Assembly (NCBI GenBank): GCA_049840815.1
Contig: JASGJI010000019.1
Location: forward strand, 401,407-465,406
From: Thermomicrobiales bacterium
GTDB lineage: Bacteria; Chloroflexota; Chloroflexia; Thermomicrobiales; UBA6265
DNA length: 64,000 nucleotides
Direction of reading: 5' to 3'
Shown: positions 13,284-30,230 of the stretch, piece by piece
Numbering within the stretch: position 1 is the stretch's first letter
How the letters are laid out: every line of letters starts with the position of its first letter
The notes under the pieces: generated by a model
Seen by the model: only the letters and a program-made list of their open reading frames with translations
What the model was told of the DNA's origin: nothing
Database searches by the model: none
Made by a program: the position numbers and the translations under genes

Positions 13284-13589
13284 GATCCCTCCGGAATGGC
13301 GGCGCACCCGAATCCCCGTCGACGCGGTGTCGCGCGGGAGAGCCGGGAACGCCATGCGCAACGCGCGAACGCGATCCGTGCTGGAAGTCCTCTATGCGAT
13401 TTCGATAGTGGCATGATGCTAGCACATGGAACCCACTGACCACAATGAGCCAGCGGGCATCCGGGTATCCCGCGGATGGGGCAATGGGGGTGCCCAGGAG
13501 ACCGCGTCTCCCAATCCCGGAGGCGCGGTCCGTGTGGCACCGCCTCTGTCTGCGAGAACGCGCCGAGGCGGTCACGGAGACGGGCGGAC

Positions 13590-13635
13590 ACACACGACAG
13601 GGCGGCCATCGTGCGATGGCCGCCCTGTCGTGTGT
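13590..13635 (-). terminator. 21-bp perfect hairpin downstream of clpX
   Basis: 13590-13610 pairs perfectly with 13615-13635, with a 4-nt loop, 24 nt after the clpX stop. There is no clear U-tract. Confidence 0.55.
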
Positions 13636-13658
13636 CGTGTCCGGGTTGGGGTGAGGCG

Positions 13659-14942
<1,284 letters not shown>

Positions 14943-15020: not shown

Positions 15021-15665
15021 TCAGGATCGCGAACCGTTGAGACCGGAGCCGCCGGGAATGGCAAGCTCGGCGGGATACAGCACTTCGTCGATCAGGCCGT
15101 AGTCCCGGGCCTCCTCGGCGGTCATGTAGTAGTCGCGCTGGGTGTCGGCCTTCACCTTCTCGAAGGTCTGGCCGGAGTGGACGGCGAGGATCTCGGTGAG
15201 GGTGTTGATGACCGCGAAGGTCTCCTTTGCCTGCACTTCGAGATCGGGGATGTTGCCCCGGAAGCCGCCGGACCCCTGATGGATCATGATGCGGGAATTC
15301 GGCAGGGCGTAGCGCTTGCCATGCTCACCGGCGGCGAGGAGGACGGCGGCCATGCTGGCGCCCATGCCCATGCAGAAGGTCTGGACATTGGCGCGGACCA
15401 TCCGCATGGTGTCGTAGATGGCGAGACCGGCGTAGACGGCACCGCCCGGGGAGTTGATGTAGAGCTTGATGTCCTGTTCGGGATCGTCGTGGTCGAGGAA
15501 GAGCATCTGGGCAATGATGAGGTTGGCGACCTGGTCGTCAACCGGGGTGCCGAGGAAGATGATGCGATCCTTGAGCAGCCGGGAGTAGATGTCGAAGGCG
15601 CGTTCGCCGCGATTCGTGCTCTCGACGACCATCGGCACGAGATTCTCGATCTTCGGGATTTCCAT
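15021..15665 (-). CDS. clpP: ATP-dependent Clp protease proteolytic subunit ClpP
   Basis: ORF 15021..15875 trimmed to ATG 15665 ([17 protein letters not shown]...). It has RIIFLG, INSPGG and GMGASMAA (catalytic Ser context). Confidence 0.95.
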
Positions 15666-16140
15666 TCGTGTGTACCCTTTTCGTCGTTGGGCGGCTGGAC
15701 GATGCTCGCATGTGGAGCGCTTGCATGGTGGTGTTCGCGACCGGGGCGAGCGTGCGTCGGATGCGTGACATCGACGTGCCATACGTCTGGTTGGGAGGAA
15801 CGTCCCACCGCACCGAGAACGAATGCAATGATAATGCGTGCGTCGAGGCGGATACCTGCCCAAAGGGCGTATCAACGAACCATGAACGGGCGGATTCTAG
15901 CATGCCTTCCGTATTCCGGCGGGCGGGAACTGGCTTCGCGCGGGCATTCCACGCAGCGAGATCGACCGGCCCGTTGCTCGCCGTTCGCGACACCAGCGGA
16001 TGGATTCCGTCCGAACCCGGAATAGGAATCCGTTCCCGTAGCGGGTCAGTTTGTCTGACCCATCCGGCGAAGCCGGATCCTTGCACCTGCCGTTGCCGGA
16101 TATTGGCTTGGTGGTTGCCTCCGACGGTATCGAACCCGGC

Positions 16141-16174
16141 CCTTGTGGCCGCCGTTTTCAGGGCGGCCACAAGG
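16141..16174 (-). terminator. 13-bp perfect hairpin immediately downstream of the methyltransferase gene
   Basis: CCTTGTGGCCGCC (16141-16153) pairs with GGCGGCCACAAGG (16162-16174). Confidence 0.45.
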
Positions 16175-16196
16175 ACCGCTTCTACGGACAGGGATT

Positions 16197-17492
16197 TCAG
16201 TCGCCGCGCTGGCGCGCGCTGGGAACGTCCTCACAGATGATGGCCCATGGGCGATCGGCGGAGCGAGTCATCGCGATCCAGTATGCATTCCGACCCTGCT
16301 TCGCCAATCTCTTGCGCAGGCGCTTTGCGATTGCATCGACGTCCCCCGCGAGTCCGCGCCGCCGAATGTCGATCGCCCCGGCGTCAAGCTCCGTCAGCGT
16401 TCGGCGGAGCGCCTTCTCGTCCCACGGCAGCGATGCCACGATGCGGTGGGAACGTGCGAAGGGGGAACCCGCCGGTCGCGCACCGACGAGGAAGGCGATC
16501 TGGCGGTCGATCGGCGTCGCATCGAGGGTGGTGGCCAGCGACTGGACGAGTCCGGCGCGGGTGATGGCGGGATTCGGGTCATGCAGCCACAGGCCGACTT
16601 CGGGGGTGACGAGTGGACGGGTCTCGGCGTCCTGCGGATCGTCCCCGAGGCCGGTCATGCTGTGGGCCACGCCATCCACGATCACCGTCGCCCGGCGAGG
16701 CGCCGTGGCGAGCGCGGGCGACCAGAGTACGGCTTCCTTCAGGTCGGCATCAACGGCGATCAGCTCGAGTTCCCATCCCGCTGGAATCGTCTCGTGGTCG
16801 ATGCCGGGCGCGAGCTTGATCCCGACCTTCGGAACGCGATCCGCCAGGCCGACGCACCAGTCCAGCGGTGGCTCGGTCTCGCCGTATGCGAACCGGCCTC
16901 CGGTATCGCGGCGTGCGGGGTCGATGAAGACGCCGTCGGCATCTCCCAGGTTGGCTGTGCGGACATCCGCGAGACCCCAGGCAAGCGAGCCGTCCGAAGC
17001 GACGAGCCGTGCATTCGTGAGCGCCATCGCCAGGTGATCCGGATCGAGGTCGACGGCGGTCAGCTGATGCACCCCAGGCACGGCAGCCAGCGCCATCAGG
17101 TCACCGCCGATCCCGCAGCAGAGGTCGACGATCGAGTTGCACCCGGTGAAGCGTTCGGCACGCCAGCGGGCGACCGCTTCGGAGCTCGCCTGTTCGTACC
17201 CGGCGCGGGTGAAGAGCATCCCCCCTGCCTGCGAGAACCGGGATGATGCCCGCGTCCGCAACTCGTGCAGTGTCATCGCCGCCGCGACGACCTCCGGCGC
17301 GAACCGCTTGCGCAGATGTGTGGCCGTGGACACGGGATCTCCGGGCGACAGGTCCGCAAGCGCAGCGAGTGCGTCCAAAGCCTCCGGACTGGCGAGCAGG
17401 GAGACGAGGTCGGATGTGGGCGTGGCGTCGGGCACCGGGGTTCCTTGCAGGCACGAGGAAGGGCCGGGGATATGCTCACCCGACCCTTCCAC
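16197..17492 (-). CDS. class I SAM-dependent methyltransferase (about 430 aa, THUMP-like-type family)
   Basis: ORF 16197..17492 (GTG start). It has the SAM-binding motif VDLCCGIGGDLMALA. The start is uncertain. Confidence 0.7.
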   Translation of the reverse strand: MEGSGEHIPGPSSCLQGTPVPDATPTSDLVSLLASPEALDALAALADLSPGDPVSTATHLRKRFAPEVVAAAMTLHELRTRASSRFSQAGGMLFTRAGYEQASSEAVARWRAERFTGCNSIVDLCCGIGGDLMALAAVPGVHQLTAVDLDPDHLAMALTNARLVASDGSLAWGLADVRTANLGDADGVFIDPARRDTGGRFAYGETEPPLDWCVGLADRVPKVGIKLAPGIDHETIPAGWELELIAVDADLKEAVLWSPALATAPRRATVIVDGVAHSMTGLGDDPQDAETRPLVTPEVGLWLHDPNPAITRAGLVQSLATTLDATPIDRQIAFLVGARPAGSPFARSHRIVASLPWDEKALRRTLTELDAGAIDIRRRGLAGDVDAIAKRLRKRLAKQGRNAYWIAMTRSADRPWAIICEDVPSARQRGD

Positions 17493-17529: not shown

Positions 17530-20067
17530 CTAGTCCTCGTTGTCCGTCTTCACGGCGTCGGCAGCCTTCTCGGCAGCATCCTTCGCCGCATCCGCAGCGG
17601 CGGAGCCGACATGATGCGCCGTGCGTGGGGCGCGGTACCCGGAGCGCTCGGCGGCTTCGGCGTCCGGGAACCAGACCTCGGCGATGGTTCGCTCGTACGA
17701 CGAGGATTCGGGCGTGTGGTAGATGCCGGAGTTTGCGTTGCCCTTCACCAGCCAACCGTTCGGCGCATCTTCACCTTCGACGGCGGCGATCCAGTCAACT
17801 CCCTCCGTCTCGTCGGGACCGTGTCCTGTCGCGTGATGGGCCTCGGCTTCCTCGCGAATCACGTCCTCTGGCTCATCGGACACAGCGGCAACGGCGGCTT
17901 CCGCTGCATCCTGCGCGTATGCGACTGCCTGCGCCCCGGCATGATGGGCCGTGTGGGGGGCGCGGTACCCGGATCGCTCGGCAGCTTCGGCATCCGGGAA
18001 CCAGACCTCAGCGTGAGTGCGTTCGTAGGATGCCGATTCCGGGGTGTGATAGATGCCGGAGTCGGCGTTGCCCTTCACGACCCAGCCGTTCGGCGCATCC
18101 TCGCCCTCGACGTCAGCGGCCCAGTCGACGCCCTCGGTCTCGGCGGGTCCATGTCCCTTAGTTGGACGATCGTCGGAGGTGTCCTGCGTCGTGGCGCTGG
18201 TGGGGGCCTCCGCTGTCAGCGGTGTTGCGCCCTCGATGGTCGGGGGGACGCCATCGATCGCGGCCTGGGCGTTGGCTGCCGTCGACTCGACATCGCCCGA
18301 TGTCCATGCGCGGGCCAGATCGCCAGCTCCCGCCAGCTTGCCGGTCAGGGCGTTCCCGGCAATGGTGCGATCCGGATTGGTGGCATCCGCAACGACCTCG
18401 TCGGCATCTGACAGCGAGCCGGAGACGGCGTTCTCGGCGATCGATGCATCGCCGGAGAGCGGAGCCGGCGTCATGGCCTGGACAGCGTCGTCGCCTGAAA
18501 CACCCTCATCGGCGGACCCATCCTGCACGACCTCATCGGCTTCGTCAAGGTTGTCCGAAACGGCGTCGGCGGCGATGGTTGCGTCCCCGGCGTCCGTCGC
18601 GCCATCGAGGTCGGGAGCAGTGAGGTCCACGTCGCCCGTATCGCCAGGCGCGTCTGGCGAGTCGACGATTTCCTCCGCATCGACCAGGGCCTCCTCGGCG
18701 GCAGATTCGTCGATGACGTCGATGCGGGTGTCCCGCGATTCCCCGATCGTATCAGGGGTGGGGGAGTCGGCAGTTGGCAACTCGGCCATCACGGCGTCGT
18801 CAGAGGCGGGCGTGAAGCTGGCGATTGATGCGTCGTCGTCCTGGTCCGCAGGGGAATCCACCACGGGGTGTTCCGCCGGCGTGCCAAAGGCGTCGATGTC
18901 GGTCGCGTCGGTGGCATCCACGAGGGCGGCGAAGAGGTCGGATTCGGCCTGTTCGCCGTCATCGCCCGCAGGCTCCTCAGCCACGGCGTCCGCGGCGGAA
19001 TCCAGCGGCATGGCGGCGGATTCGTCTACCTCATAGTCGAGATCGGCGATCGTCTCCTCGTCGGCCAGGCCTTCGAAGGTGTCGCTCGCACCCTCGATCG
19101 TGACGTCGGAGGCATAGATCTCGGCCGGAAGCAGCGCGTCGTCGTCCGGGATGCTGTCGAAGAGATCGTCATCCTCATCGTCGTGGCCGGCAACGACGAC
19201 GAACCGTGACGCCGCGAGGTCGGTGGAGTCGGCTGGCGTCTCGGACGCCTCGGCGACGGGCTCTGCCGGTATGGTGTCGGCTTCACTGGTCGTGTCAGCG
19301 GCTTCGGGGTTGTCAAGGAAATGCTCCACCTTCGCGCGGAGATCCTCGAAGAAGCCTTCCCGGTGCTCCGCATGCGGTGTCTCGACATCGGGGGCCAGCT
19401 CACTGCGGTCATCCAGGCCCGGTGTCACGACGACCTCTGGCGTGAATTCGGAGTCGCTGGTTCCTGACTCCGAACGCGGCTCGTTCAGCAGCGGGGACGT
19501 CGCCATCTCGGCGGACCCGGCCAGCGGAAGGTCCGCGCTGGCCTCCGGCTCGATGGCCGGGCTGACCGTGCGGACGACACCGTTGATGTCTGGATCGGAG
19601 ACGTACAGCTCCTGCGCGAAGGCCTCTGCTTCCAGCGCCTCCGGGGATTCGTCGGCGGCCTCGTCGAGGAACGCGGCATCCTCCGCCTCGACGGACGCAC
19701 GCTCGTCGTCGCTCATGATGGCGTCGGCATCAGTATCGACATCCGGTGCATCGGCGTCGGGCACGATGCCGTCTTCAGCGTGAATGGAGGCCATCTCCTC
19801 GTCGCTGAGAACCGGGTCAGCGGCGGGTGTCGCGTCCTGCGGTGCATCGAGGAAGGCGTCCACGCGCTCCTTCATGTCATGGAAGAAGCCTTTGCCCCCG
19901 GCAGGCTCCTGGGTGGTCTCCGTGGCAAGGTCGGCATCGGGCAGGTCCGCAACGGGGGTGTTGATGCCGTCGTGTTCCTGGGTGGTCGTCTCCGCGACAG
20001 GTGCCGCCGGGACATCGGGGATCGTGGCGTTGACCTCGACGTCGGGCTGCGTCGCGTCGACGTCCAC
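17530..20067 (-). CDS. large acidic repeat protein, downstream (C-terminal) reading-frame segment
   Basis: ORF 17530..20067. It is extremely D/E/A/T-rich, has two amphipathic GFF.D.+.+V..FLD.P motifs and two C-terminal ~72-aa KGN..SGIYH...GYR modules. Its frame stays protein-like upstream to about 20290 without any ATG/GTG/TTG, so it is probably the continuation of the 19872..21620 ORF. Confidence 0.7.
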   Translation of the reverse strand: MDVDATQPDVEVNATIPDVPAAPVAETTTQEHDGINTPVADLPDADLATETTQEPAGGKGFFHDMKERVDAFLDAPQDATPAADPVLSDEEMASIHAEDGIVPDADAPDVDTDADAIMSDDERASVEAEDAAFLDEAADESPEALEAEAFAQELYVSDPDINGVVRTVSPAIEPEASADLPLAGSAEMATSPLLNEPRSESGTSDSEFTPEVVVTPGLDDRSELAPDVETPHAEHREGFFEDLRAKVEHFLDNPEAADTTSEADTIPAEPVAEASETPADSTDLAASRFVVVAGHDDEDDDLFDSIPDDDALLPAEIYASDVTIEGASDTFEGLADEETIADLDYEVDESAAMPLDSAADAVAEEPAGDDGEQAESDLFAALVDATDATDIDAFGTPAEHPVVDSPADQDDDASIASFTPASDDAVMAELPTADSPTPDTIGESRDTRIDVIDESAAEEALVDAEEIVDSPDAPGDTGDVDLTAPDLDGATDAGDATIAADAVSDNLDEADEVVQDGSADEGVSGDDAVQAMTPAPLSGDASIAENAVSGSLSDADEVVADATNPDRTIAGNALTGKLAGAGDLARAWTSGDVESTAANAQAAIDGVPPTIEGATPLTAEAPTSATTQDTSDDRPTKGHGPAETEGVDWAADVEGEDAPNGWVVKGNADSGIYHTPESASYERTHAEVWFPDAEAAERSGYRAPHTAHHAGAQAVAYAQDAAEAAVAAVSDEPEDVIREEAEAHHATGHGPDETEGVDWIAAVEGEDAPNGWLVKGNANSGIYHTPESSSYERTIAEVWFPDAEAAERSGYRAPRTAHHVGSAAADAAKDAAEKAADAVKTDNED
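17611..17826 (-). repeat. coding repeat, copy 3 of the KGN..SGIYH...AGYR module
   Basis: GHGPDETEGVDWIAAVEGEDAPNGWLVKGNANSGIYHTPESSSYERTIAEVWFPDAEAAERSGYRAPRTAHH. By hand alignment it has 37 mismatches in 216 nt, ungapped, against copy 2. Confidence 0.9.
17941..18156 (-). repeat. coding repeat, copy 2 of the KGN..SGIYH...AGYR module
   Basis: GHGPAETEGVDWAADVEGEDAPNGWVVKGNADSGIYHTPESASYERTHAEVWFPDAEAAERSGYRAPHTAHH. Confidence 0.9.
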
Positions 20068-21620
20068 CGTCGTTGGCGTGTCGGTCCTGGATGCGACAGC
20101 AGCGGCTCCCGCGATGGCTGCGCCCGTGGCGACGGTCGTGGTCGCGTCGGGGGTTGCGTTCTCGTCCGCCGGCTTGTCGAAGAAGGTGGTGAGGCGATTA
20201 CGCAGTTGGCCGAAGACGCCTGCCTTCGCTGCCGTCGCCGCTGGAGAGGCCGAATCCGTGCCGGAGTCGGCAGGGGCAGGGTACTCGCCGGTTCGTTGGC
20301 AGGAGTTGCCCCGAGTGTCGTGGCCGCGAAGGCCGGAGCGGCCGGAATTGCCGGCGTTGTCGTCTCAGGGGCTGCGGAGGGGACGGTGTCGGGCTCGGTA
20401 GCGACGACGTCCGAGGGCTCAGTCAGATTGAAAGAGTCGTCGCTGCTGAGATCGCCCGGCAGTTCGACAGGAGGCGCGGCATACTCCTCGTCCGCATCTT
20501 CGGATGCCTCCTCGGCGGCGTTGGCAAGCACGTCCCCGTCCTCTGGCTCGTCGCCGTCATCCTCGAAGCCTTCGAAGGAGTCAGATGGGAGGTCGGTGTA
20601 GCCGTGATCGTCGTACTCCTCCGCTTGCGCGGCGACTTCGGCGGCCTCGGCAGCGAGATCGGGGTCGGGCGAGTCGCCGATGGCGGCGGCGTCGCTGAGT
20701 GCCGTGGTGTCGGCGGCCCCTGAAGCCTCCGCCGACGTCGATTCGGTGGCGTCGCTCTCAGGCATCACGACGATGCCCCCTTCGCTGGCGGCGGGGATAC
20801 CTGCGTCAGAGAGGTCGAGGCCGGGCACCTCGGCGGCGATGGCGGGTGTTTCGATCGTCTCGTCCGGAGCATCGGACGCCGCGATCGCCGTGGTTGCGAT
20901 CGTGGCCGCAACCGGCGCGGCGGGCGGTGTGTACGGCGTCTCCCCGGTGGGCGGGGTGATGGGGAGTTCCGGATCAGGTTGGCCGAAATCGACCGCTGGT
21001 GTGCTGGCGTCCAGATCCGCCTGCGTGCCGCTCCAGGCGTTGGTCACACGTCCCTGAAGATCGGTGAAGGGGGTTTCGGAGGCAGCGACTCCCTGTCCGA
21101 GGTCGTTCTTTGTGGCGGAGACATGAACGGCGTCACCACGCACATCGACGATCTGGGCGGCCATGATGGCGATGGTCTTCGAGAAGAAGCGGCCGACGCG
21201 GACAGTGAGGACCTCATCGGTCCCATCCTCGACCTCGCCGATGCGCTCCCCATCAGCGCCGATCACGGCCATGCCCTCGGCGATGGTCCAGGAGTCGGTG
21301 CTCCCACTCGTCGCTGCGGCCGTCGCCGCCGGTGTGGCATCGGCTGCGACGTTCGGGACGATGGCCGCACCTTCGGGCAGGCTGCTCCAGGTGTCGCTGG
21401 TGGCGACATCCGACGTGACGTTGAGATGCACGGCCCCGCTGTCGATCCCCGCGATGGCGGAGACCGGCACGTAGTACTCCTTCGTCATGAAGAGGAACCC
21501 GTGCTTTACGATGAGGGCGCTTCCGGCGGACCCGGTGACTTCGCCGATCTTCTTGCCGTCGCTGCCGAGGACCTCCTGGCCCTCACGCACGACCCACGCT
21601 GTGGTGTCCGCGTCTGACAT
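19872..21620 (-). CDS. large acidic repeat protein, upstream (N-terminal) segment with two PRC-barrel/DUF2171-like domains
   Basis: ORF 19872..21908 trimmed to ATG 21620 (GGGGAGG 6 nt upstream). It has two copies of V.EG..V.G.DG..IGEV......L.V......K...V....I..... .VH(L/V). The sequence after about 20285 turns R/P/S-rich (out-of-frame look), consistent with a frameshift into the next ORF. Confidence 0.7.
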   Translation of the reverse strand: MSDADTTAWVVREGQEVLGSDGKKIGEVTGSAGSALIVKHGFLFMTKEYYVPVSAIAGIDSGAVHLNVTSDVATSDTWSSLPEGAAIVPNVAADATPAATAAATSGSTDSWTIAEGMAVIGADGERIGEVEDGTDEVLTVRVGRFFSKTIAIMAAQIVDVRGDAVHVSATKNDLGQGVAASETPFTDLQGRVTNAWSGTQADLDASTPAVDFGQPDPELPITPPTGETPYTPPAAPVAATIATTAIAASDAPDETIETPAIAAEVPGLDLSDAGIPAASEGGIVVMPESDATESTSAEASGAADTTALSDAAAIGDSPDPDLAAEAAEVAAQAEEYDDHGYTDLPSDSFEGFEDDGDEPEDGDVLANAAEEASEDADEEYAAPPVELPGDLSSDDSFNLTEPSDVVATEPDTVPSAAPETTTPAIPAAPAFAATTLGATPANEPASTLPLPTPARIRPLQRRRQRRQASSANCVIASPPSSTSRRTRTQPPTRPRPSPRAQPSREPLLSHPGPTRQRRWTSTRRSPTSRSTPRSPMSRRHLSRRRPPRNTTASTPPLRTCPMPTLPRRPPRSLPGAKASSMT

Positions 21621-21982
21621 TGCTCGCCTCCCCTGATGCCGGGCGCCGATGGCGCATAGTCCCGAACGACGTGTTTGCGAACGATCCGGATACCGAATCC
21701 CCTCCGGTGCGTGGTGTTCCGGGTGAACTGGAACCGTCGTCGCGCCGGCACGGGTATTGCCTGCTTCTACTCTACCTGAGCCATGGCGTTTTCGATAATC
21801 ACCGGAAGCGAAATCCATGAGCTTTTCGCGGAGATCGTCGGCGTGAGTGGCCGAATGATGGCCTGATCCCTTGCATTTCATGGGCCACGCCTCCTTTGCC
21901 TCGCACAAACAACGACCGCACCCGGAAGTCCCGGATGCGGTCGTCTTTTGTCGTAGTTGCCGTGGCCAGGAAGGCGCGAGGA

Positions 21983-23719
21983 TTACTCCTCGGAGACGGC
22001 AGCCTCGGCGGCGGCCTTCGCAGCGCTTGCTGCGGTCTCGCCCACCTTCGGCATGTTCTTCGGCGCGCGGTAGCCAGCGCGCTCGGCAGCCTCGGCGTCC
22101 GGGAACCAGACCTCAGCGACGGTGTTCTCGTACGCCGGGGATTCCGGGGTGTGATAGATGCCGGAATCGGCGTTGCCCTTCACCACCCAGCCGTTCGGCG
22201 CATCCTCGCCCTCGACGGCGGCGACCCAGTCGTTGCCCTCGGACTCGGACGGGCCGGCGGACTTGGCCTTGCGGGCGGGCTTCGCGGCGGGGGCCTCTTC
22301 GGTCTCGGCGGACGCATCGGAGACGATCTCGGCATCGACGATGCCGTCGTTCTCGGTCTCGATCGCGACCGGCTCCGGAGCGACCCAGCCGTTGATGACC
22401 GCGCCCTTGCCCTCGGTGGCCTGCTCGATCAGGTGATCCTGGAGCTTGCGGTCGAACAGCTCGCTCTGGAGCATGTTCTTGAAGTAGTCGGACTTGTAGA
22501 TCTCGCGGAGGCGCTGGGCCTGGGCCTCGCCTTCCTCCCCGGAGACGGCGCCGGCGTTCGCCCCGATCAGGCGTTCGATCTCGGCGTCGATGTCCTCGTC
22601 CGTGACCTCAACGCCTTCCTTCGTCGCGTACTCGCGCAGCAGGAGGGAGTTGCGCAGGCGGCGCTCCGACTCCGGGAAGAGGGAGTCGTGCAGGCTGGCC
22701 TCGGTCTGGCCACGGGATGCGAGGAAGGCCTCGAACGGCATGCCGTTACGGGCGGCGTCCTGCTTGAGGTGCTCCAGCTGGTGGTGCACTTCGTCGTGGA
22801 TCATCTCGTGAGGCAGGTCGATCGGAGAGGTCTCCGCCAGCTTCTCGATGATCTGGTTCACGATGTCGTTGCGGGCGTCGTTGGTCTTGCCCTGGTGGAT
22901 GTCATCGCGGATCTGCTGGATGAGATCGTCCAGCGACTCGGCGTCCGCGACATCCTTCGCGAACTCATCGTCCAGCGCCAGGAGCTCGCGCTCCTTGATG
23001 CCCTTCAGGGTCACGGTATAGGAGAGGGTCTTGCCGCGGATGGAGGAATCGGCGGTCTCGTCGTCCTCCCCGAAGGCGATATCGAAGCTGGCGGACTCAC
23101 CGACGTGCAGCTTCTCGATCTCTGCCTTCAGCTGCGCAAGCAGGTTCGTCTCGCCGAGCACGAAGACCGCGTCCTCGATCGGCTCCTGGAACGGCTCGCC
23201 GTCATCCGTCACGGCGTAGTCGACCGTCACCTGGTCACCATCGACCGGGGTGCGCTCTTCCTTGGGATCGGCCCACGGGCTCTGGGAGCGCTGCAGGCGG
23301 TCGATGACCTCCTGCACGTCCTCGTCGCTGACGGCGGCATCGACCGGCTCGACGCGAATACCGGCGTAGTCGCCCAACTCGACCGTCGGGTAGACGGCGA
23401 CGGTGACGACGAAGTTGAGCGGCTCGAAGTCCTTGATCTCGACCTGAGGATCACCGACCGGCACCAGGCTCTCCTGGGAGAGGGCTGCGCGGTAGAGCTT
23501 CTCCATCAGTTCGTCGGCGGCCTCGCGGGCGAAGACATCCGGCCCGTACATGCGCTCGATCATCGCGCGCGGGGCCTTGCCCTTCCGGAAGCCCGGAACC
23601 TGGATGTCCTTGCTCACCTTGCGGACGGCGACCTGCAACGCCTCCTGGTACTCGGCGTCTTCGGAGGTAATGTCGAGCACGGCGATGCTGCCGCTATTCC
23701 GTTCAACCGAAAGTTTCAC
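21983..23719 (-). CDS. tig: trigger factor (peptidyl-prolyl isomerase) with non-canonical C-terminal extension
   Basis: ORF 21983..23854. The likely start is GTG 23719 (VKLSVERNSGSIAVLDI...), which matches the canonical Tig N-terminus. PGFRKGKAPR is the ribosome-binding signature. ATG 23779 is an alternative start. Confidence 0.9.
   Translation of the reverse strand: MKLSVERNSGSIAVLDITSEDAEYQEALQVAVRKVSKDIQVPGFRKGKAPRAMIERMYGPDVFAREAADELMEKLYRAALSQESLVPVGDPQVEIKDFEPLNFVVTVAVYPTVELGDYAGIRVEPVDAAVSDEDVQEVIDRLQRSQSPWADPKEERTPVDGDQVTVDYAVTDDGEPFQEPIEDAVFVLGETNLLAQLKAEIEKLHVGESASFDIAFGEDDETADSSIRGKTLSYTVTLKGIKERELLALDDEFAKDVADAESLDDLIQQIRDDIHQGKTNDARNDIVNQIIEKLAETSPIDLPHEMIHDEVHHQLEHLKQDAARNGMPFEAFLASRGQTEASLHDSLFPESERRLRNSLLLREYATKEGVEVTDEDIDAEIERLIGANAGAVSGEEGEAQAQRLREIYKSDYFKNMLQSELFDRKLQDHLIEQATEGKGAVINGWVAPEPVAIETENDGIVDAEIVSDASAETEEAPAAKPARKAKSAGPSESEGNDWVAAVEGEDAPNGWVVKGNADSGIYHTPESPAYENTVAEVWFPDAEAAERAGYRAPKNMPKVGETAASAAKAAAEAAVSEE
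22058..22240 (-). repeat. coding repeat, copy 1 of the same module, at the C-terminus of trigger factor
   Basis: EGNDWVAAVEGEDAPNGWVVKGNADSGIYHTPESPAYENTVAEVWFPDAEAAERAGYRAPK. Positions 22140-22217 are 76/78 identical to 18035-18112. Confidence 0.9.
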
Positions 23720-26752: not shown

Positions 26753-26843
26753 TGGGGCGTCGTGACGAGTCCCCGCCCTTCTACCATGTACAATAACGCC
26801 GATCGAGCAATAATTGCGTGTCGGCGTGGAGTCGGGGCAGCGG

Positions 26844-28142
26844 ATGGCACAAGGGCGCAGCGGCAGTCGAAATACCCGTACGACACGACGAGCCGCGCTC
26901 GACGCGCGCCGATCGGCGCGTCTGGTGGTTGCCGTGTTGCTCGGGGTGATGCTTGCCGCGCCGTTCTCCGCCATGTCGCTCGCGGCTGAAGCGGGTGGTG
27001 CTGGTCTGCAGCGCATATCCCCACACCTCACGCAGGAGACGGACGATCCTGACGGGGCGGCGGACCCTACAGAAGCCGTGCCGACTGACGTTCCTCCGAC
27101 GGAGATCCCCCCGACCGAGATTCCGCCGACCGATGTGCCCCCCACGGAACTTCCTACCGAGACCCTCGTGCCGACCGAGACCGCGACGGCCGAGCCGACG
27201 GCACCATCAACCCCATCCCCGACCACTACCGCCTCCCCGACGATCATGCCTTCGCCTGCGGTGGCCTGGTCGTTGTCGCCCGATCTCGTCTGCGAGACCG
27301 AGGCCGATGCGGTGGTCTCGGGCGGTTCGATTGTCTACGTATGCAGGGTGGCTGCGACCGTCGTGGCCGGGGCCGCCCCGAACCTTGCATTGGAGCTTCA
27401 GTGGGATGTCACGACCGACGGACGCTCCGATGACTGGTCGATCGAGGTGCGTCCATCCGACGCGGAGGCGTGGTCGGATGCCGGAGATGGAACCCCGCTC
27501 GAGATCGTCGATGCGTTCACGACCGGGTCCGGTACGAGCACGCAGACGCTGGCCCGACCGCTGACGTTCGACCTGCAACTTACCCGTGCGTCGTGCGTGA
27601 CGACCGATCCTCCCATCGCCGTCAGGATATCCGCCAGCATCACGGCACCACACGCATCGACGATGCCGATCGCGGCGACGGGGAGCACGACGCGCGACGC
27701 GACGGTGACGCCTGTTCTCGCGGCGATTCCAGAGCCGTCGATCTCGTTCCTGGGGCCATTGACGTTCGGGCAGGTGAGCCTGCCATCGAACGAGCAGGTC
27801 GCGGTTCAGGCTTCGACGGCGGTGTTGCTGATCGACGGACTCGACCAGAGTTGCGGCATCTGGACCATCGCGGTGGAAGGCGGATCGCTTTCCGCAGGAG
27901 GTGGCCGGGTGCTGGAGGCGGCGAATGTCCAGCTCATTTCGGTGAACGGGCAGCTCGCGCCATCAAGTCCGTGCGGCCTCGATGAGGCCTGCGTCGTTGC
28001 CGTGATCGCTGCCGGACCGAATAGCCTGTCCTCGCTGCAACTCACATTGGGGTTTCAGGTGATCGTGCCAGCTGATGCACCATTGGGCGCGCTCCAGGCC
28101 CTGGTGACGGCAACGATCTTCAGGGGGACCGCATTACCATGA
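26844..28142 (+). CDS. secreted protein with PT-rich tandem repeats and a C-terminal WxL-like domain
   Basis: ORF 26814..28142; ATG 26844 is preferred over TTG 26814. It has a signal peptide (ARLVVAVLLGVMLAAPFSAMSLAAEA) and PTDVPPTEIPPTEIPPTDVPPTELPTE repeats. The C-terminal LTFGQVSL...LLIDGLDQSCGIWTIAVEGGSLS...LQALVTATIF resembles the WxL-domain layout. Confidence 0.6.
   Translation: MAQGRSGSRNTRTTRRAALDARRSARLVVAVLLGVMLAAPFSAMSLAAEAGGAGLQRISPHLTQETDDPDGAADPTEAVPTDVPPTEIPPTEIPPTDVPPTELPTETLVPTETATAEPTAPSTPSPTTTASPTIMPSPAVAWSLSPDLVCETEADAVVSGGSIVYVCRVAATVVAGAAPNLALELQWDVTTDGRSDDWSIEVRPSDAEAWSDAGDGTPLEIVDAFTTGSGTSTQTLARPLTFDLQLTRASCVTTDPPIAVRISASITAPHASTMPIAATGSTTRDATVTPVLAAIPEPSISFLGPLTFGQVSLPSNEQVAVQASTAVLLIDGLDQSCGIWTIAVEGGSLSAGGGRVLEAANVQLISVNGQLAPSSPCGLDEACVVAVIAAGPNSLSSLQLTLGFQVIVPADAPLGALQALVTATIFRGTALP
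27081..27155 (+). repeat. five tandem 15-nt (PTxxP) coding repeats
   Basis: ccgactgacgttcct / ccgacggagatcccc / ccgaccgagattccg / ccgaccgatgtgccc / cccacggaacttcct. The repeats degenerate further downstream. Confidence 0.8.
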
Positions 28143-28711
28143 GGGATCGGTGCCTCGGAGCGATGGCGGTCGTGCGGACGCTTGTCGTCGTGCTTCTGGT
28201 GCTTGGCTCGGTCGGTGGGGAGCGGGTGTTCGCCGACACGTCCGCCTCCACCACGGCAAGCCTGAATGTCGGGCCGACGAGCGACACGACGTTCGCCGTC
28301 GCCGTTTCCGGGTCGACGTTCAGCGCGGTGACGTACCGGACCGGCAGCAGCTTCCAGAACGCGAGCGGGTCGGTTGTCATCACCGTCGTGGATGCCCGGG
28401 GAACGGGTGCGGGATGGACCGTCTCACTGGCGGCGAGCGGGGACTTGAAGTCCGGGGCGTCCAGCATCCCCATCAATGCCCTGTCGTTTCAGCCGGCATC
28501 GGTTCAGGGGCAGAATGGTGCGAACCCGAACGGGATCAACCGCTATGCGTTGACGATGTCCGCGCAATCCCAGCGTGTGCTGGTGGCGACGAACGGAAGC
28601 GGTAAAGGCACCTTCGTCTGCGCCCTGCAAGGGACGATCCGCGTCCCCGACCGGACGGCCGCCGGTACCTACACGACCACGCTGACGGTGACGCTGGTCT
28701 CCGGTTCCTGA
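28139..28711 (+). CDS. small secreted WxL-like domain protein
   Basis: ORF 28139..28711, with an ATGA overlap with the upstream stop. It has a signal peptide. VVDARGTGAGWTVSLAASGDL matches the proximal D.RG...GW.[LV] motif. The C-terminal AGTYTTTLTVTLVSGS matches the distal motif, with Trp replaced by Val. Confidence 0.6.
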   Translation: MRDRCLGAMAVVRTLVVVLLVLGSVGGERVFADTSASTTASLNVGPTSDTTFAVAVSGSTFSAVTYRTGSSFQNASGSVVITVVDARGTGAGWTVSLAASGDLKSGASSIPINALSFQPASVQGQNGANPNGINRYALTMSAQSQRVLVATNGSGKGTFVCALQGTIRVPDRTAAGTYTTTLTVTLVSGS

Positions 28712-28781
28712 CGCATTCGCGAATCGTCCTGTGTCATCCCATCACCTATGGATACAATGACCATGTGGCATTATTGTCCAT

Positions 28782-30077
28782 GTGGCATCTATGTTGGTTG
28801 GTGGGGGAGTGGGTACGGTGACACGATCAATGTTGGGGCGATTGGTCAGGGAACGGGTGCTTGCGGCAGGCATGGCGATGATGCTCCTGCTCTCGCTCTG
28901 CTCGCCGATGCAGGCAATCGCCCAGGATTCGACGCCTCCCGCCTCGCCGGCGGCATCGACGACCGGCGTCCTCTTCTCGGTGAATCCGAAGGGTCAGGTG
29001 GATGGATCGTTCTTCGAGCTGAAGGCGAAGCCGGGCGACACCCTGGAACTCACCGTTCAGTTCGGGAACCTTGGGGCTGAGGCAATCGACCTGCGAACCT
29101 ATGTTGCCGACGTCGTGACGCTGATCAATGGCGGGATGGGCATCACCGCCGAGGGCACCGCTGCGCAAGCGCCGACGACCTGGATCACGTATCCCGCCCA
29201 GACCTACTCGCTGAACCCCAACGACGGACGGGAAATCACCTTCAAGGTGGTCGTGCCGACGGACGCGGCACCGGGGAACTACGTGAGCGCCCTGGTGGTG
29301 CAGACGGCGGACCCGGTTCCGGTGGAGGGCACGCCGCTCTTCGACCAGATCATCCAGAAGGCGGTGGCGATCGACATTACGGTCGAGGGTGATGCCCAGC
29401 CGAAGCTGGAGATCGGCACGGCGACCTACGACGCATCGGGATCGTCCCCGACCTTGAGCGTCGAGATCAGGAACACGGGTGCGCTGCGTCTTCGACCAGC
29501 CGGCAAGATCTCCGTGAAGGACGCTTCCGGCGAGGAGATTCTCAGCGCCGACGTGGCAATGGGCAGCGTCTATGCCCGGACGGACACGCGCCTGCAGTTC
29601 GTGCTGCAACAGCCACTCCCTGCCGGGCACTACACCATCGACCTGACGCTCGCGGATGCGGATACGAAGGCGGAAGCCTCGGTGACGGACCTCGCGTTCG
29701 AGGCGATGGCACCGGTGGCACCGATCCAGACGACCATCATCTTCCAGGACATCGCCATCGCGGCTGGTCCGGACGCGACCGCGCCGCAGTTCGCCACGGT
29801 GACGGGCACGATCGTCAACAATGGCACGGCCCTGCCGAACGCGCAGCTCTCGATCACGGCCTCCCTCGATGGCAAGGAAGTCGAGACGTTCCAGCTGTTG
29901 CCGTCGGTCTCGCTGGCTACCGGCAACACCCCGATCCAGCAGCGGTACATTCCGGGTACTGGCTTCACCAAGGGAACATGGACCTTCGTCCTCACGCTCG
30001 AAAGCGTCGACCCATCCACTGGTGTCGCGTCCAAGCTGATCGAGCAGCCGGTGGAAACGCAGGTCGTCGTGCCATAA
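28782..30077 (+). CDS. secreted DUF916-like (WxL-interacting/CscA-like) protein, no C-terminal anchor
   Basis: ORF 28782..30077; GTG 28818 or ATG 28830 are alternative starts. It has a signal peptide. LFSVNPKGQVDGSFFELKAKPGDTLELTVQFGNLG...TWITYPAQTYSLNPNDGREITFKVVVPTDAAPGNYVSALVV fits the DUF916 N-terminal pattern. Ig-like repeats follow. Confidence 0.55.
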   Translation: MASMLVGGGVGTVTRSMLGRLVRERVLAAGMAMMLLLSLCSPMQAIAQDSTPPASPAASTTGVLFSVNPKGQVDGSFFELKAKPGDTLELTVQFGNLGAEAIDLRTYVADVVTLINGGMGITAEGTAAQAPTTWITYPAQTYSLNPNDGREITFKVVVPTDAAPGNYVSALVVQTADPVPVEGTPLFDQIIQKAVAIDITVEGDAQPKLEIGTATYDASGSSPTLSVEIRNTGALRLRPAGKISVKDASGEEILSADVAMGSVYARTDTRLQFVLQQPLPAGHYTIDLTLADADTKAEASVTDLAFEAMAPVAPIQTTIIFQDIAIAAGPDATAPQFATVTGTIVNNGTALPNAQLSITASLDGKEVETFQLLPSVSLATGNTPIQQRYIPGTGFTKGTWTFVLTLESVDPSTGVASKLIEQPVETQVVVP

Positions 30078-30230
30078 CGACGCCCGTGCCGATTCTGGCG
30101 CCGGTCGTCTCCGTCTCCGATCGATCCACGATGACGTGGTTCGACTGGGGACGGTTCGCGTTTCAGGGGATGATGACGCGGTACAGTTGCACGATGGTAT
30201 GGCAGCGGATCGGTGAAGGGAAGTGGCAGG

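Follow-up and report, generated by a model that had tools for sequence, protein, structure and literature searches.

Two overlapping frames between tig and clpPX in a Thermomicrobiales bacterium are halves of one gene for a giant polyanionic protein

The 64,000-nucleotide stretch of Thermomicrobiales DNA analysed here (the window) contains two long minus-strand ORFs that overlap in different frames, 17530..20067 (845 aa, ORF B) and 19872..21908 (678 aa), raising the question of whether they encode two proteins or one, and what such a product would do. An earlier note had read both as a single giant protein.

17530..21620, minus strand: whole gene, restored product of 1,363 aa, with two barrels, a polyanionic disordered region and two sunset modules; one frameshift in the assembly
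20273..20276, minus strand: likeliest frameshift site, a C4 run; C5 would restore ...EPASTLPPADSGTDS...

The start codon is ATG 21620, preceded by a GGGAGG Shine-Dalgarno sequence, both of which were kept in five relatives. ORF B was open as far as a stop at 20365-20367, and no ATG, GTG or TTG was found upstream of 20067 within its open frame. This startless stretch of 297 nt, inside which the first of three amphipathic motifs sits, was the longest among the 35 coding-like ORFs of the window, the others reaching at most 129 nt. Related Thermomicrobiales MAGs carried intact single-ORF orthologues of 932 to 1703 aa (P0002, P0003, P0004, P0005 and P0007), whose alignment ran through the junction, with P0005 covering 100% of the joined query. 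Identity to the orthologues was comparable in the C-terminal (61 to 72%) and N-terminal (66 to 72%) domains, indicating no decay past the frameshift, and the window copy differed from all of them by one missing base. Thus, the two ORFs are halves of one gene with one base missing between them. The earlier joining was right in this respect, but it had silently repaired the 1-nt frameshift of the window copy. Contrary to both findings that the note had said would overturn it, neighbours were kept in at least seven genomes and the orthologues showed no stops.

The frame-B stop at 20365-20367 and motif 1, at about 20226, bound the interval in which the frame must shift. Within this interval the C run at 20273-20276 is most likely the place of the missing base, and the restored 'TLPPADSG' matched 'TLPPADTG' in P0004. 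The base was either dropped in assembly or lost very recently by mutation. It is unlikely that the frameshift is real and that this strain has a split or newly inactivated gene. The products would then be a PRC-barrel protein of 582 aa, ending in an out-of-frame basic tail of 135 aa, and at best also a C-terminal fragment of 845 aa that restarts at GTG 20067. The assembled DNA does encode exactly this split form, the 582-aa ORF A (P0009; NCBI MGC4108581.1) is annotated by NCBI as a protein and not as a pseudogene, and no second frameshift was evident in about 35 window ORFs, including eight neighbours compared with L001, which gives no obvious sign of an assembly full of errors. However, every orthologue was intact at the site, the conserved motif 1 would be untranslatable, and the 916 stop-free codons downstream were conserved as well as the N terminus. 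For its part, the Arg/Pro-rich out-of-frame tail of P0009 had no homologue; in the restored frame the peptide across the junction would read ...EPASTLPPADSGTDSASPAATAAK. The site is, moreover, a homopolymer run, and the 471-kb MAG contig may be a long-read assembly, where such errors are typical.

The gene occupies a fixed slot in the order tig(+sunset), slot gene, THUMP-like methyltransferase, clpP and clpX, a synteny conserved in L001-L004, L008 and L010-L012.

21983..23719, minus strand: tig, 578 aa, with a C-terminal sunset module (DNA at 22041-22261)
21904..21943, minus strand: intrinsic terminator-like hairpin and U-tract, 40 nt past the tig stop
21621..21776, minus strand: conserved upstream region, with a -10-like GGTAGAGTAGAAGCAG at 21761-21776, a leader of about 140 nt and GGGAGG
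16197-17492, minus strand: THUMP-like class I methyltransferase, conserved downstream neighbour
15021-15665, minus strand: clpP, conserved downstream neighbour
13659-14903, minus strand: clpX, conserved downstream neighbour

The window tig was 100% identical to the NCBI entry 'MAG: trigger factor [Thermomicrobiales bacterium]'. The hairpin after it (-32 kcal/mol, z = -6.6) showed compensatory changes in L002 and L003, and with a terminator-like element at this position the giant gene appears, from its sequence, to have its own promoter and leader. We infer that these are formed by the conserved upstream region, whose leader includes a hairpin, GCGCC-AUC-GGCGC, at 21643-21655. Terminator-like and long intergenic regions separate the genes of the locus, so any co-regulation with tig and clpPX is only putative. 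Co-occurrence with the extended tig, to which the note had drawn attention, was found in one direction only, tig with sunset being far more widespread than the giant gene.

The joined protein has a pI of about 4.05, a net charge of about -253 and no Cys. Its net charge per residue was -0.186, compared with -0.021 +/- 0.031 for 29 other window ORFs. The top 19-aa Kyte-Doolittle window reached only 1.3, so the protein has neither a transmembrane segment nor a signal peptide, as the note had said.

21411..21599, minus strand: DUF2171/PRC barrel 1, residues 8-70 (Pfam DUF2171 at residues 11-73), with invariant alignment columns
21105..21293, minus strand: DUF2171/PRC barrel 2, residues 110-172 (Pfam PRC at residues 115-172)
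21033..21074, minus strand: conserved helix TPFTDLQGRVTNAW after barrel 2, with invariant T-P..DLQG...NAW; predicted helix at residues 182-195 of P0004
18172..21032, minus strand: polyanionic low-complexity region, residues 197-1150; charge -210, 24% D+E, 2.2% K+R

Two DUF2171 matches (46 bits; cutoff, 25) and one PRC match (31.6 bits; cutoff, 21.2) were obtained with Pfam at the N terminus. In the AF2 model of P0004 the barrel 2 region reached a pLDDT of 81 to 89, and the best Foldseek matches of the predicted barrel were the PRC H subunit, 3htr and RimM, in agreement with the two units recognised in the note. The acidic middle, first put at some 900 aa, measured about 950 aa, was placed among disordered sequences by the charge-hydropathy boundary and contained over 20 short islands of conserved sequence. 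Because the AF2 models were of low quality (mean pLDDT, 40 and 43), the prediction of disorder rests on composition and shallow-alignment models.

20164..20226, minus strand: amphipathic motif 1, KAGVFGQLRNRLTTFFDKPAD; net charge +2, upstream of every ORF B start codon
19834..19896, minus strand: amphipathic motif 2, GKGFFHDMKERVDAFLDAPQD
19300..19362, minus strand: amphipathic motif 3, REGFFEDLRAKVEHFLDNPEA; counterpart helix in P0004 with a pLDDT of about 79
19570..19629, minus strand: best-conserved island of the disordered region, AEAFAQELYVSDPDINGVVR, recognisable as REIAQEVFGSNDPDLPDV in the 533-aa positional orthologue P0018
18304..18588, minus strand: repeats of about 22 aa, 'GD.TIA.NA..G.L..A.D..', ending in ..DLARAW; predicted helical

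The three motif copies that interrupt this region were found exactly where the note had placed them. A loose pattern matched three times in the real protein and 0.0 times per shuffled protein (2000 shuffles), and each orthologue of at least 932 aa contained two to four copies. All six of the hydrophobic residues of the motif helix fell inside an arc of 120 degrees that basic residues border on either side; 10 of the 21 K/R of the disordered region lie in or adjoin the motifs.

17944..18141, minus strand: sunset module 1, residues 1161-1226 (NF051437)
17614..17811, minus strand: sunset module 2, residues 1271-1336 (NF051437)

The C-terminal 'KGN..SGIYH' module corresponds to the 'sunset' domain (NCBIfam NF051437; Pfam PF27542 'ArfC'), detected twice at the giant C terminus (137.7 bits; cutoff, 27) and once on tig (75.1 bits). 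It is also visible as a 221-nt DNA repeat at 17606-17826, 17936-18156 (83%) and, in tig, 22041-22261 (76%), and the tig module was 79 to 80% identical to the two of the giant protein. The sharing of this module with tig was thus corroborated. The note could name no family for the architecture; the combination is indeed uncharacterised, but its terminal module was already curated. No paper in the literature searched mentions the term 'sunset domain', and DUF2171 appears there only within gene lists. NCBIfam has sunset variants for L17, L4, L20, S2 and ArfC. Among 66 sunset proteins surveyed, 13 had ArfC N-terminal TM anchors and 4 were L22, with single cases of L4, S3, S6, tig and PntA, and coiled-coil proteins also present. 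The domain was nearly always C-terminal, in tandem arrays of one to five. The sole solved chain with a sunset domain is C. acnes uL4, whose extension lacks EM density, indicating that the domain has no stable docking position on the ribosome. The modules of the giant protein are acidic (net -7 to -10 per 66 aa), which makes unspecific binding to nucleic acids less likely.

Only eight matches below 1e-30 emerged when 1.84e9 representative proteins were scanned exhaustively with HMMER, and only two GTDB species representatives, both Thermomicrobiales, had the gene. It is a small lineage-restricted family consisting of one or two DUF2171/PRC barrels, a motif-studded disordered region of about 350 to 1400 aa and one or two sunset modules. 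Across relatives the slot was empty (L016 and L017) or held proteins of 305 to 426 aa with barrel and disordered region but without sunset, of 533 aa (P0018 in L008), of 932 aa or of 1151 to 1703 aa, a series that represents stepwise inflation. The sunset-less form was found in L013 and L014; its barrel shared 35% identity with the P0004 barrel (E 3e-13), its repeat region likewise aligned, and the 22-aa repeats were present in the L013 protein too. The sunset of the giant protein probably originated as a copy of the neighbouring tig 3' end, judging from the 73 to 83% identity of tig and giant modules compared with about 35 to 50% for sunset domains generally. The giant protein is a new combination of already known domains, lineage-specific and unstudied.

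As to function, we tentatively favour, at somewhat less than even confidence, one gene of this family whose product is a cytoplasmic polyanionic tether or scaffold sharing the docking module of trigger factor. The long chain would be self-repelling. Its two sunset modules would bring it to a target common to trigger factor and the sunset-tagged ribosomal proteins, most plausibly near translating ribosomes, and the barrels together with two to four amphipathic helices (hydrophobic face, rare K/R flanks) would bind one or more partner proteins. The chain of about -210 could hold the two ends tens of nm apart and may also, as a 'bristle' close to nascent chains, have a solubilising, holdase-like effect. 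With the ribosome as target, a sunset module on already ribosomal proteins would be redundant.

A scaffold in which sunset modules are stickers that bind one another or some multivalent partner, with the acidic linkers as spacers, would account for these ribosomal carriers, and is distinctly unlikely. Sunset-tagged ribosomal proteins, trigger factor, ArfC-type anchors and the giant protein, as a bivalent cross-linker, would then co-assemble into clusters or condensates. This agrees with the tandem arrays on carriers as unrelated as ribosomal proteins, tig and TM anchors (P0011 and P0019, for example), with their low-complexity, often acidic linkers, and with the flexible, undocked uL4 copy; net-negative modules, however, disfavour homotypic binding without counter-ions.

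Other sunset proteins carry membrane anchors, and the amphipathic helices might target the membrane, as in MinD, FtsA and SepF, so that the protein hangs from its inner face and offers barrels or sunset modules to the cytoplasm. We regard such a membrane-to-ribosome tether as improbable. The hydrophobic face and K/R flanks suit it, as does motif 1, net +2 with acidic residues downstream of it, resembling the SepF N terminus. Nevertheless, motifs 2 and 3 carry a negative net charge and an acidic polar face, hydrophobic moments are only modest (0.35 to 0.42), an anionic membrane should repel the surrounding chain, and the 533-aa orthologue P0018 has no motif. An envelope or division role, suggested by the archaeal division proteins CdpB1 and CdpB2 (PRC barrels, Foldseek rank 43) and by a conserved divergent SH3-M23 peptidoglycan endopeptidase gene, is very improbable, since the Foldseek match is weak (E 0.81), the protein has no secretion signal and the M23-tig arrangement remains in L016 and L017, so that M23 adjacency belongs to tig.

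Among known systems, the giant protein recalls protective proteins that are highly charged and disordered ('entropic bristle' or Hero-like) and polyanionic chaperones. The likeness lies in extreme charge, low complexity and predicted disorder, here in a proteostasis neighbourhood (tig, clpP and clpX); those proteins lack terminal docking domains and sequence kinship, and the analogy is functional only. The N terminus resembles DUF2171/PRC-barrel proteins (PF09939 and PF05239; the RimM C-terminal domain, R. palustris 3HTR and the reaction-centre H subunit), with Pfam matches above gathering thresholds and a barrel match, although typical DUF2171 proteins are small and single-domain whereas this one is multi-part. 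The RimM barrel binds ribosomal protein uS19, only an analogy for the giant protein, which lacks the RimM N-terminal domain. Sunset is weakly similar to the Ada N-terminal Zn(Cys)4 domain (PF02805; Pfam 27 bits, cutoff 23; hhalign E 4.8e-4, probability 32%), sharing ..G[IL][FY].[RT]P......F....EA..AG[FY]R. However, all four Cys ligands are missing in the giant protein, with His opposite Ada Cys38 and Ser opposite Cys42, and the module is acidic; the name 'methylphosphotriester-DNA methyltransferase', which JGI gives to P0008, a stand-alone sunset protein, is probably an over-annotation. With the sunset fusion proteins (L4, L17, L20, S2, ArfC and the trigger factor of many Chloroflexota) the giant protein shares the same module of about 42 to 65 aa, P..[WYF].[IV]KGN..S..[YF]H.P.S..Y..T.AE.WF....A..AG[FY], in tandem, C-terminal and behind a low-complexity linker. 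It differs in its N-terminal partner, a pair of PRC barrels instead of a ribosomal protein, trigger factor or TM anchor, and in a linker of about 950 aa with a charge of about -210 and conserved motifs of its own.

As assembled, the giant gene is represented in the ORF listing by two overlapping minus-strand ORFs in different frames.

Features of the giant gene and its surroundings (window positions)
17530..20067, minus strand: downstream ORF, 845 aa
19872..21908, minus strand: upstream ORF, 678 aa
21620, minus strand: ATG, the true start of the upstream ORF
20365-20367: stop that bounds the open downstream frame
20273-20276: C4 run, best candidate for the site of a missing base
20164-20223, 19834-19896 and 19300-19362, minus strand: amphipathic motifs 1 to 3
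17606-17826 and 17936-18156: copies of a 221-nt repeat encoding the sunset module, in the giant gene
22041-22261: third copy of this repeat, in tig
21904-21943, minus strand: hairpin plus U-tract, probable intrinsic terminator of tig
21621-21776, minus strand: conserved upstream region, with the -10-like element GGTAGAGTAGAAGCAG (21761-21776) and a leader of ~140 nt
21643-21655, minus strand: leader hairpin, GCGCC-NNN-GGCGC

The ATG is preceded by a GGGAGG Shine-Dalgarno sequence, and both are kept in five relatives. The downstream frame lacks any ATG, GTG or TTG before 20067, and the resulting startless stretch of 297 nt, in which motif 1 lies, is the longest among the 35 coding-like ORFs of the window (the rest reach at most 129 nt). 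Past position ~20270 the upstream frame continues only as Arg/Pro/Ser-rich nonsense. The frames of the two halves differ by -1, and therefore one base is missing. When the C4 run was read as C5, the restored protein showed the sequence ...EPASTLPPADSGTDS..., in agreement with the 'TLPPADTG' of the intact orthologue P0004; the segment spanning the junction reads ...EPASTLPPADSGTDSASPAATAAK.

A search of 5.8e9 proteins yielded seven homologues of 932-1703 aa, those bearing names being from Thermomicrobiales MAGs, and all seven were single ORFs with DUF2171 and PF27542. One of them, P0005, covers 100% of the joined protein, and the full alignment of the homologues is continuous through the frameshift junction, which bears out the joining of the two ORFs proposed in the earlier note. 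An exhaustive HMMER search of 1.84e9 cluster representatives gave only 8 matches below 1e-30. Among these was P0009 (NCBI MGC4108581.1, 'MAG: DUF2171 domain-containing protein [Thermomicrobiales bacterium]', on a contig of 471 kb), which is exactly the 582-aa upstream ORF of the window, nonsense tail included. The public record thus splits the gene and retains a product that ends in nonsense, an annotation problem in its own right.

The window copy keeps 916 stop-free codons downstream of the shift, and its C-terminal domains are conserved relative to the orthologues (61-72%) like the N-terminal ones (66-72%). The shift therefore either was introduced by the assembly or happened very recently; a homopolymer error is favored, with a real mutation the less likely of the two. 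Programmed -1 frameshifting was discarded: no slippery heptamer is present, tRNA-Pro in the P site, once paired with CCC, could not re-pair with GCC, and the orthologues are all in frame at this point. The gene model and the architecture derived from it are, in our judgment, very probably correct. Elsewhere, in L016, the locus of a distant relative on a 2.1-Mb metagenome contig, the M23 peptidase gene (L016:4490-6111) and the THUMP-like methyltransferase gene (L016:8854-10033) are each split into two ORFs, which suggests a frameshift-prone long-read assembly and shows that errors of this type do occur in such data.

The restored protein (1,363 aa) has a pI of about 4.05 and a net charge of about -253, with 19% Ala, 22% Asp plus Glu, 3.5% Lys plus Arg and no Cys. 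Its charge per residue is -0.186, versus -0.021 ± 0.031 in 29 other ORFs of the window; these are ordinary in charge, so that a proteome-wide, halophile-like acidity was rejected. A secreted or surface protein was ruled out as well, since neither a signal peptide nor a transmembrane segment was found (the top 19-aa hydropathy window is 1.3). Most of the charge resides in residues 197-1150 (net -210), which the charge-hydropathy boundary classes as disordered. When P0004 was modeled with AF2, the pLDDT of this region was below 50 except for a few helices. That model, of the full orthologue, had a mean pLDDT of 43 and was credible only for the second barrel and the motif helices, while a model of the C-terminal 312 aa, built from a 7-sequence alignment, was unusable (mean pLDDT of 40).

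The acidic region contains more than 20 islands conserved in the full alignment, for example TPLTDLQGRITNAW, GY.DLPSDPF, PVDLPGD, EAFAQELYVSDPDI.G.VR, SRF.VV..HDDDDDL and GEQAESDLFAA.VDAT, together with repeats of the form 'GD.TIA.NA..G.L..A.D'. The coordinates at which the earlier note had placed the three amphipathic motifs proved exact. The motif occurs two to four times in every homologue, and a loose pattern for it matched three times in the real protein and 0.0 times in shuffled versions. On each helix the six hydrophobic residues span an arc of 120 degrees with Lys/Arg on either side; the disordered region has 21 K/R residues, 10 of which fall in or beside the three motifs. Of the features that mark lipid-binding, membrane-targeting helices of the MinD, FtsA and SepF type, the amphipathic geometry was found in all three, and a net positive charge in motif 1 only.

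Both ends of the protein could be assigned to known families. DUF2171/PRC barrels occupy residues 8-70 and 110-172, with scores of 46 bits for DUF2171 (PF09939; cutoff, 25; two stretches) and 31.6 bits for PRC (PF05239; cutoff, 21.2). No sequence match to the N terminus was found in the PDB. The second barrel is modeled in P0004 with a pLDDT of 81-89, and a Foldseek comparison of the predicted barrel with the PDB returned as best hits the H subunit PRC domain of the reaction center, the PRC-barrel protein 3HTR and RimM (probability of ~1.0; E value of 8e-3 or weaker). The C-terminal, tandem modules at residues 1161-1226 and 1271-1336 are sunset domains (NCBIfam NF051437/PF27542; 137.7 bits over two stretches, versus a curated cutoff of 27). 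All the near-invariant columns of a 35-sequence sunset alignment (P, K-G-N, S, H, T, E, F, A and G) are present in them, and PF27542 is also recorded, as a precomputed match, on the orthologues. The neighboring tig gene ends in the same module (75.1 bits), and no further copies were found elsewhere in the 64-kb window.

The gene order is the same in seven distinct genomes: a divergent SH3-M23 peptidase gene, then tig with its sunset module, the giant gene, a gene for a THUMP-like class I methyltransferase, clpP and clpX. The hairpin and U-tract located 40 nt past the tig stop (-32 kcal/mol; z = -6.6) show compensatory substitutions in two related loci, L002 and L003; this probable terminator was found by alignment and folding and had been missed by the pattern scan. 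Together with the conserved -10-like element and leader, it indicates that the giant gene is probably its own transcription unit. The leader hairpin lies ~25 nt ahead of the Shine-Dalgarno sequence; it had no match in Rfam, and its covariation is limited (7 sequences). Rfam, promoter and terminator scans across 13-25 kb gave nothing useful. The intergenic region between the methyltransferase gene and clpP (15666-16196) is unusually long, at 531 nt (359 nt in L001, another relative). A palindrome at 13580-13646, between clpX and the next gene, gave weak matches on both strands to two unrelated miRNA models (E values of 0.046 and 0.88) and in all likelihood is the terminator hairpin of clpX, not an RNA gene. 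Beyond the M23 peptidase, cell surface genes with WxL and WxLIP_PGBD domains are conserved in relatives (L001:1905-4736; L002:1567-4781); their counterparts in the window would lie at ~26800-30100 on the plus strand.

We define here a slot family of tig-adjacent, disordered PRC-barrel proteins of Thermomicrobiales, which begin with a barrel, continue with a long stretch of low complexity and are encoded between tig with its sunset module and the THUMP-like methyltransferase/clpP/clpX genes. Members were found in the window and in the loci L001-L004, L008 and L010-L014. In the most distant loci examined, L016 and L017, the methyltransferase gene directly follows tig and the slot is empty. L013:12626-13906 and L014:11472-12389 encode slot proteins of 305-426 aa that have a single PRC barrel (35% identical; E value of 3e-13), a nonacidic P/E/S/T-rich region and the same 'NA..G.L..A....R.W' repeats but lack a sunset module. 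The product of L008:8001-9602 (533 aa) carries a single barrel and a single sunset module together with ~350 aa of acidic sequence; that of L010:5605-8403 has 932 aa, and those of the window clade range from 1,151 to 1,703 aa. Through this series a single gene inflates step by step, gaining the sunset module midway. In L013 the tig and slot genes are separated by an extra ORF of 283 aa (L013:11230-12081), Cys rich, with a Tat-like signal (RRLSRRQAVTASAG...) and no Pfam match.

The co-occurrence with the extended tig that the earlier note had brought up held in one direction: in the loci examined the giant gene was accompanied by tig with sunset, but not the reverse, the extended tig being far commoner and its module being present on almost every one of the top 120 tig homologues (47-87% identity). 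The sunset modules of the giant protein and those of tig share 73-83% identity, against about 35-50% for sunset domains generally, and the modules of the two proteins group by orthology, not by genome, a clustering on which concerted evolution within genomes was rejected. From the slot series, this identity and the clustering, the simplest history would therefore be a single capture of the 3' module of tig followed by linker inflation. The fixed locus offers a clean natural record of a bacterial disordered protein inflating and capturing a domain of its neighbor.

A literature search on 'sunset domain', DUF2171 and ArfC/Rv0901 returned nothing functional, and 'sunset domain' appeared in none of the papers searched. 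A homologue search with a single 72-aa module returned one candidate only. The exhaustive search collected 66 sunset proteins, including 13 ArfC-type N-terminal transmembrane anchors, 4 L22 proteins and isolated examples of L4, S3, S6, tig, PntA and coiled-coil proteins; dedicated 'sunset variant' models exist in NCBIfam for L4, L17, L20, S2 and ArfC. The module is nearly always C-terminal, in arrays of 1-5 that follow low-complexity, often acidic linkers. Alignment of sunset modules from P0010-P0152 revealed two flavors, one in which two Cys residues are conserved, in 'CP..' ahead of KGN and in 'E.CF' behind it, a pair that could be a disulfide or what is left of a metal site, and another, including the window modules, with Ala and Trp instead ('AP..' and 'EVWF'). 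PDB searches by sequence and by profile gave a sole match, uL4 of Cutibacterium acnes (E value of 3.5e-22), whose extension is unresolved; therefore, the sunset module has no solved structure and is not rigidly docked on the ribosome.

What stays constant across the family is the layout: a barrel at one terminus, sunset at the opposite one and, between them, a long charged linker that can vary four-fold in length. Such a layout is characteristic of a tether or scaffold rather than of an enzyme. The sunset target may lie in the neighborhood of translating ribosomes, because the module is common to trigger factor and to solvent-side ribosomal proteins of both subunits. The barrels and amphipathic helices would be the likely partner-binding elements, and the polyanionic chain, repelled by RNA, DNA and membrane, would stay extended and might double as a solubilizing bristle. 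This mechanism is proposed tentatively, as less likely than not. The flexible uL4 copy, the acidity of the giant protein's own modules (net -7 to -10) and the redundancy of a ribosome tag on proteins that are already ribosomal count against it, and the same three points keep alive two other models, a homotypic one of stickers and spacers and one of a membrane tether. Less probable still is the boldest version of the ribosome-proximal tether, a previously unrecognized proteostasis factor in which a polyanionic 'bristle' of ~950 aa would be brought to translating ribosomes by sunset as a docking module, the module also seen on the trigger factor of Chloroflexota and on many ribosomal proteins of actinobacteria. 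If it were true, sunset would be a general cytoplasmic address tag, and the giant protein and tig could serve as baits for its receptor.

Bacterial cytoplasmic proteins seldom contain long disordered regions, and a conserved polyanionic region of ~950 aa (charge of ~-210) between folded domains is exceptional. The giant protein ties DUF2171 and sunset, both uncharacterized, to the tig-clpPX proteostasis locus, and the shared module and shared locus provide a concrete handle on why ribosomal proteins and trigger factor carry a sunset tag.

The giant protein is not a trigger factor, since Trigger_N, FKBP and Trigger_C are all absent from it and all present on the neighboring gene. It is not ArfC, the Rv0901-type channel accessory protein, lacking a match to NF051455 (N-terminal transmembrane segment) as well as any strongly hydrophobic window. 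Nor is it the 16S rRNA processing protein RimM, no RimM family match being found in Pfam or NCBIfam; the barrel resembles RimM at the fold level only. The N-terminal Zn domain of Ada (PF02805) shows a weak similarity to sunset (27 bits; hhalign E value of 4.8e-4), but all four Ada Cys ligands, which bind Zn and one of which is the methyl acceptor, are missing from the module, with His and Ser at aligned positions. A stand-alone sunset protein of 97 aa (P0008, from JGI) is named 'methylphosphotriester-DNA--protein-cysteine methyltransferase' at its source, probably an over-annotation from this weak similarity, because the Cys ligands are absent. Family members are publicly named 'sunset domain-containing' or 'DUF2171 domain-containing' protein. 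The domains were already known, by name only; new are the way in which they are combined, the linker with its size and charge, and the inflation series at a fixed locus.
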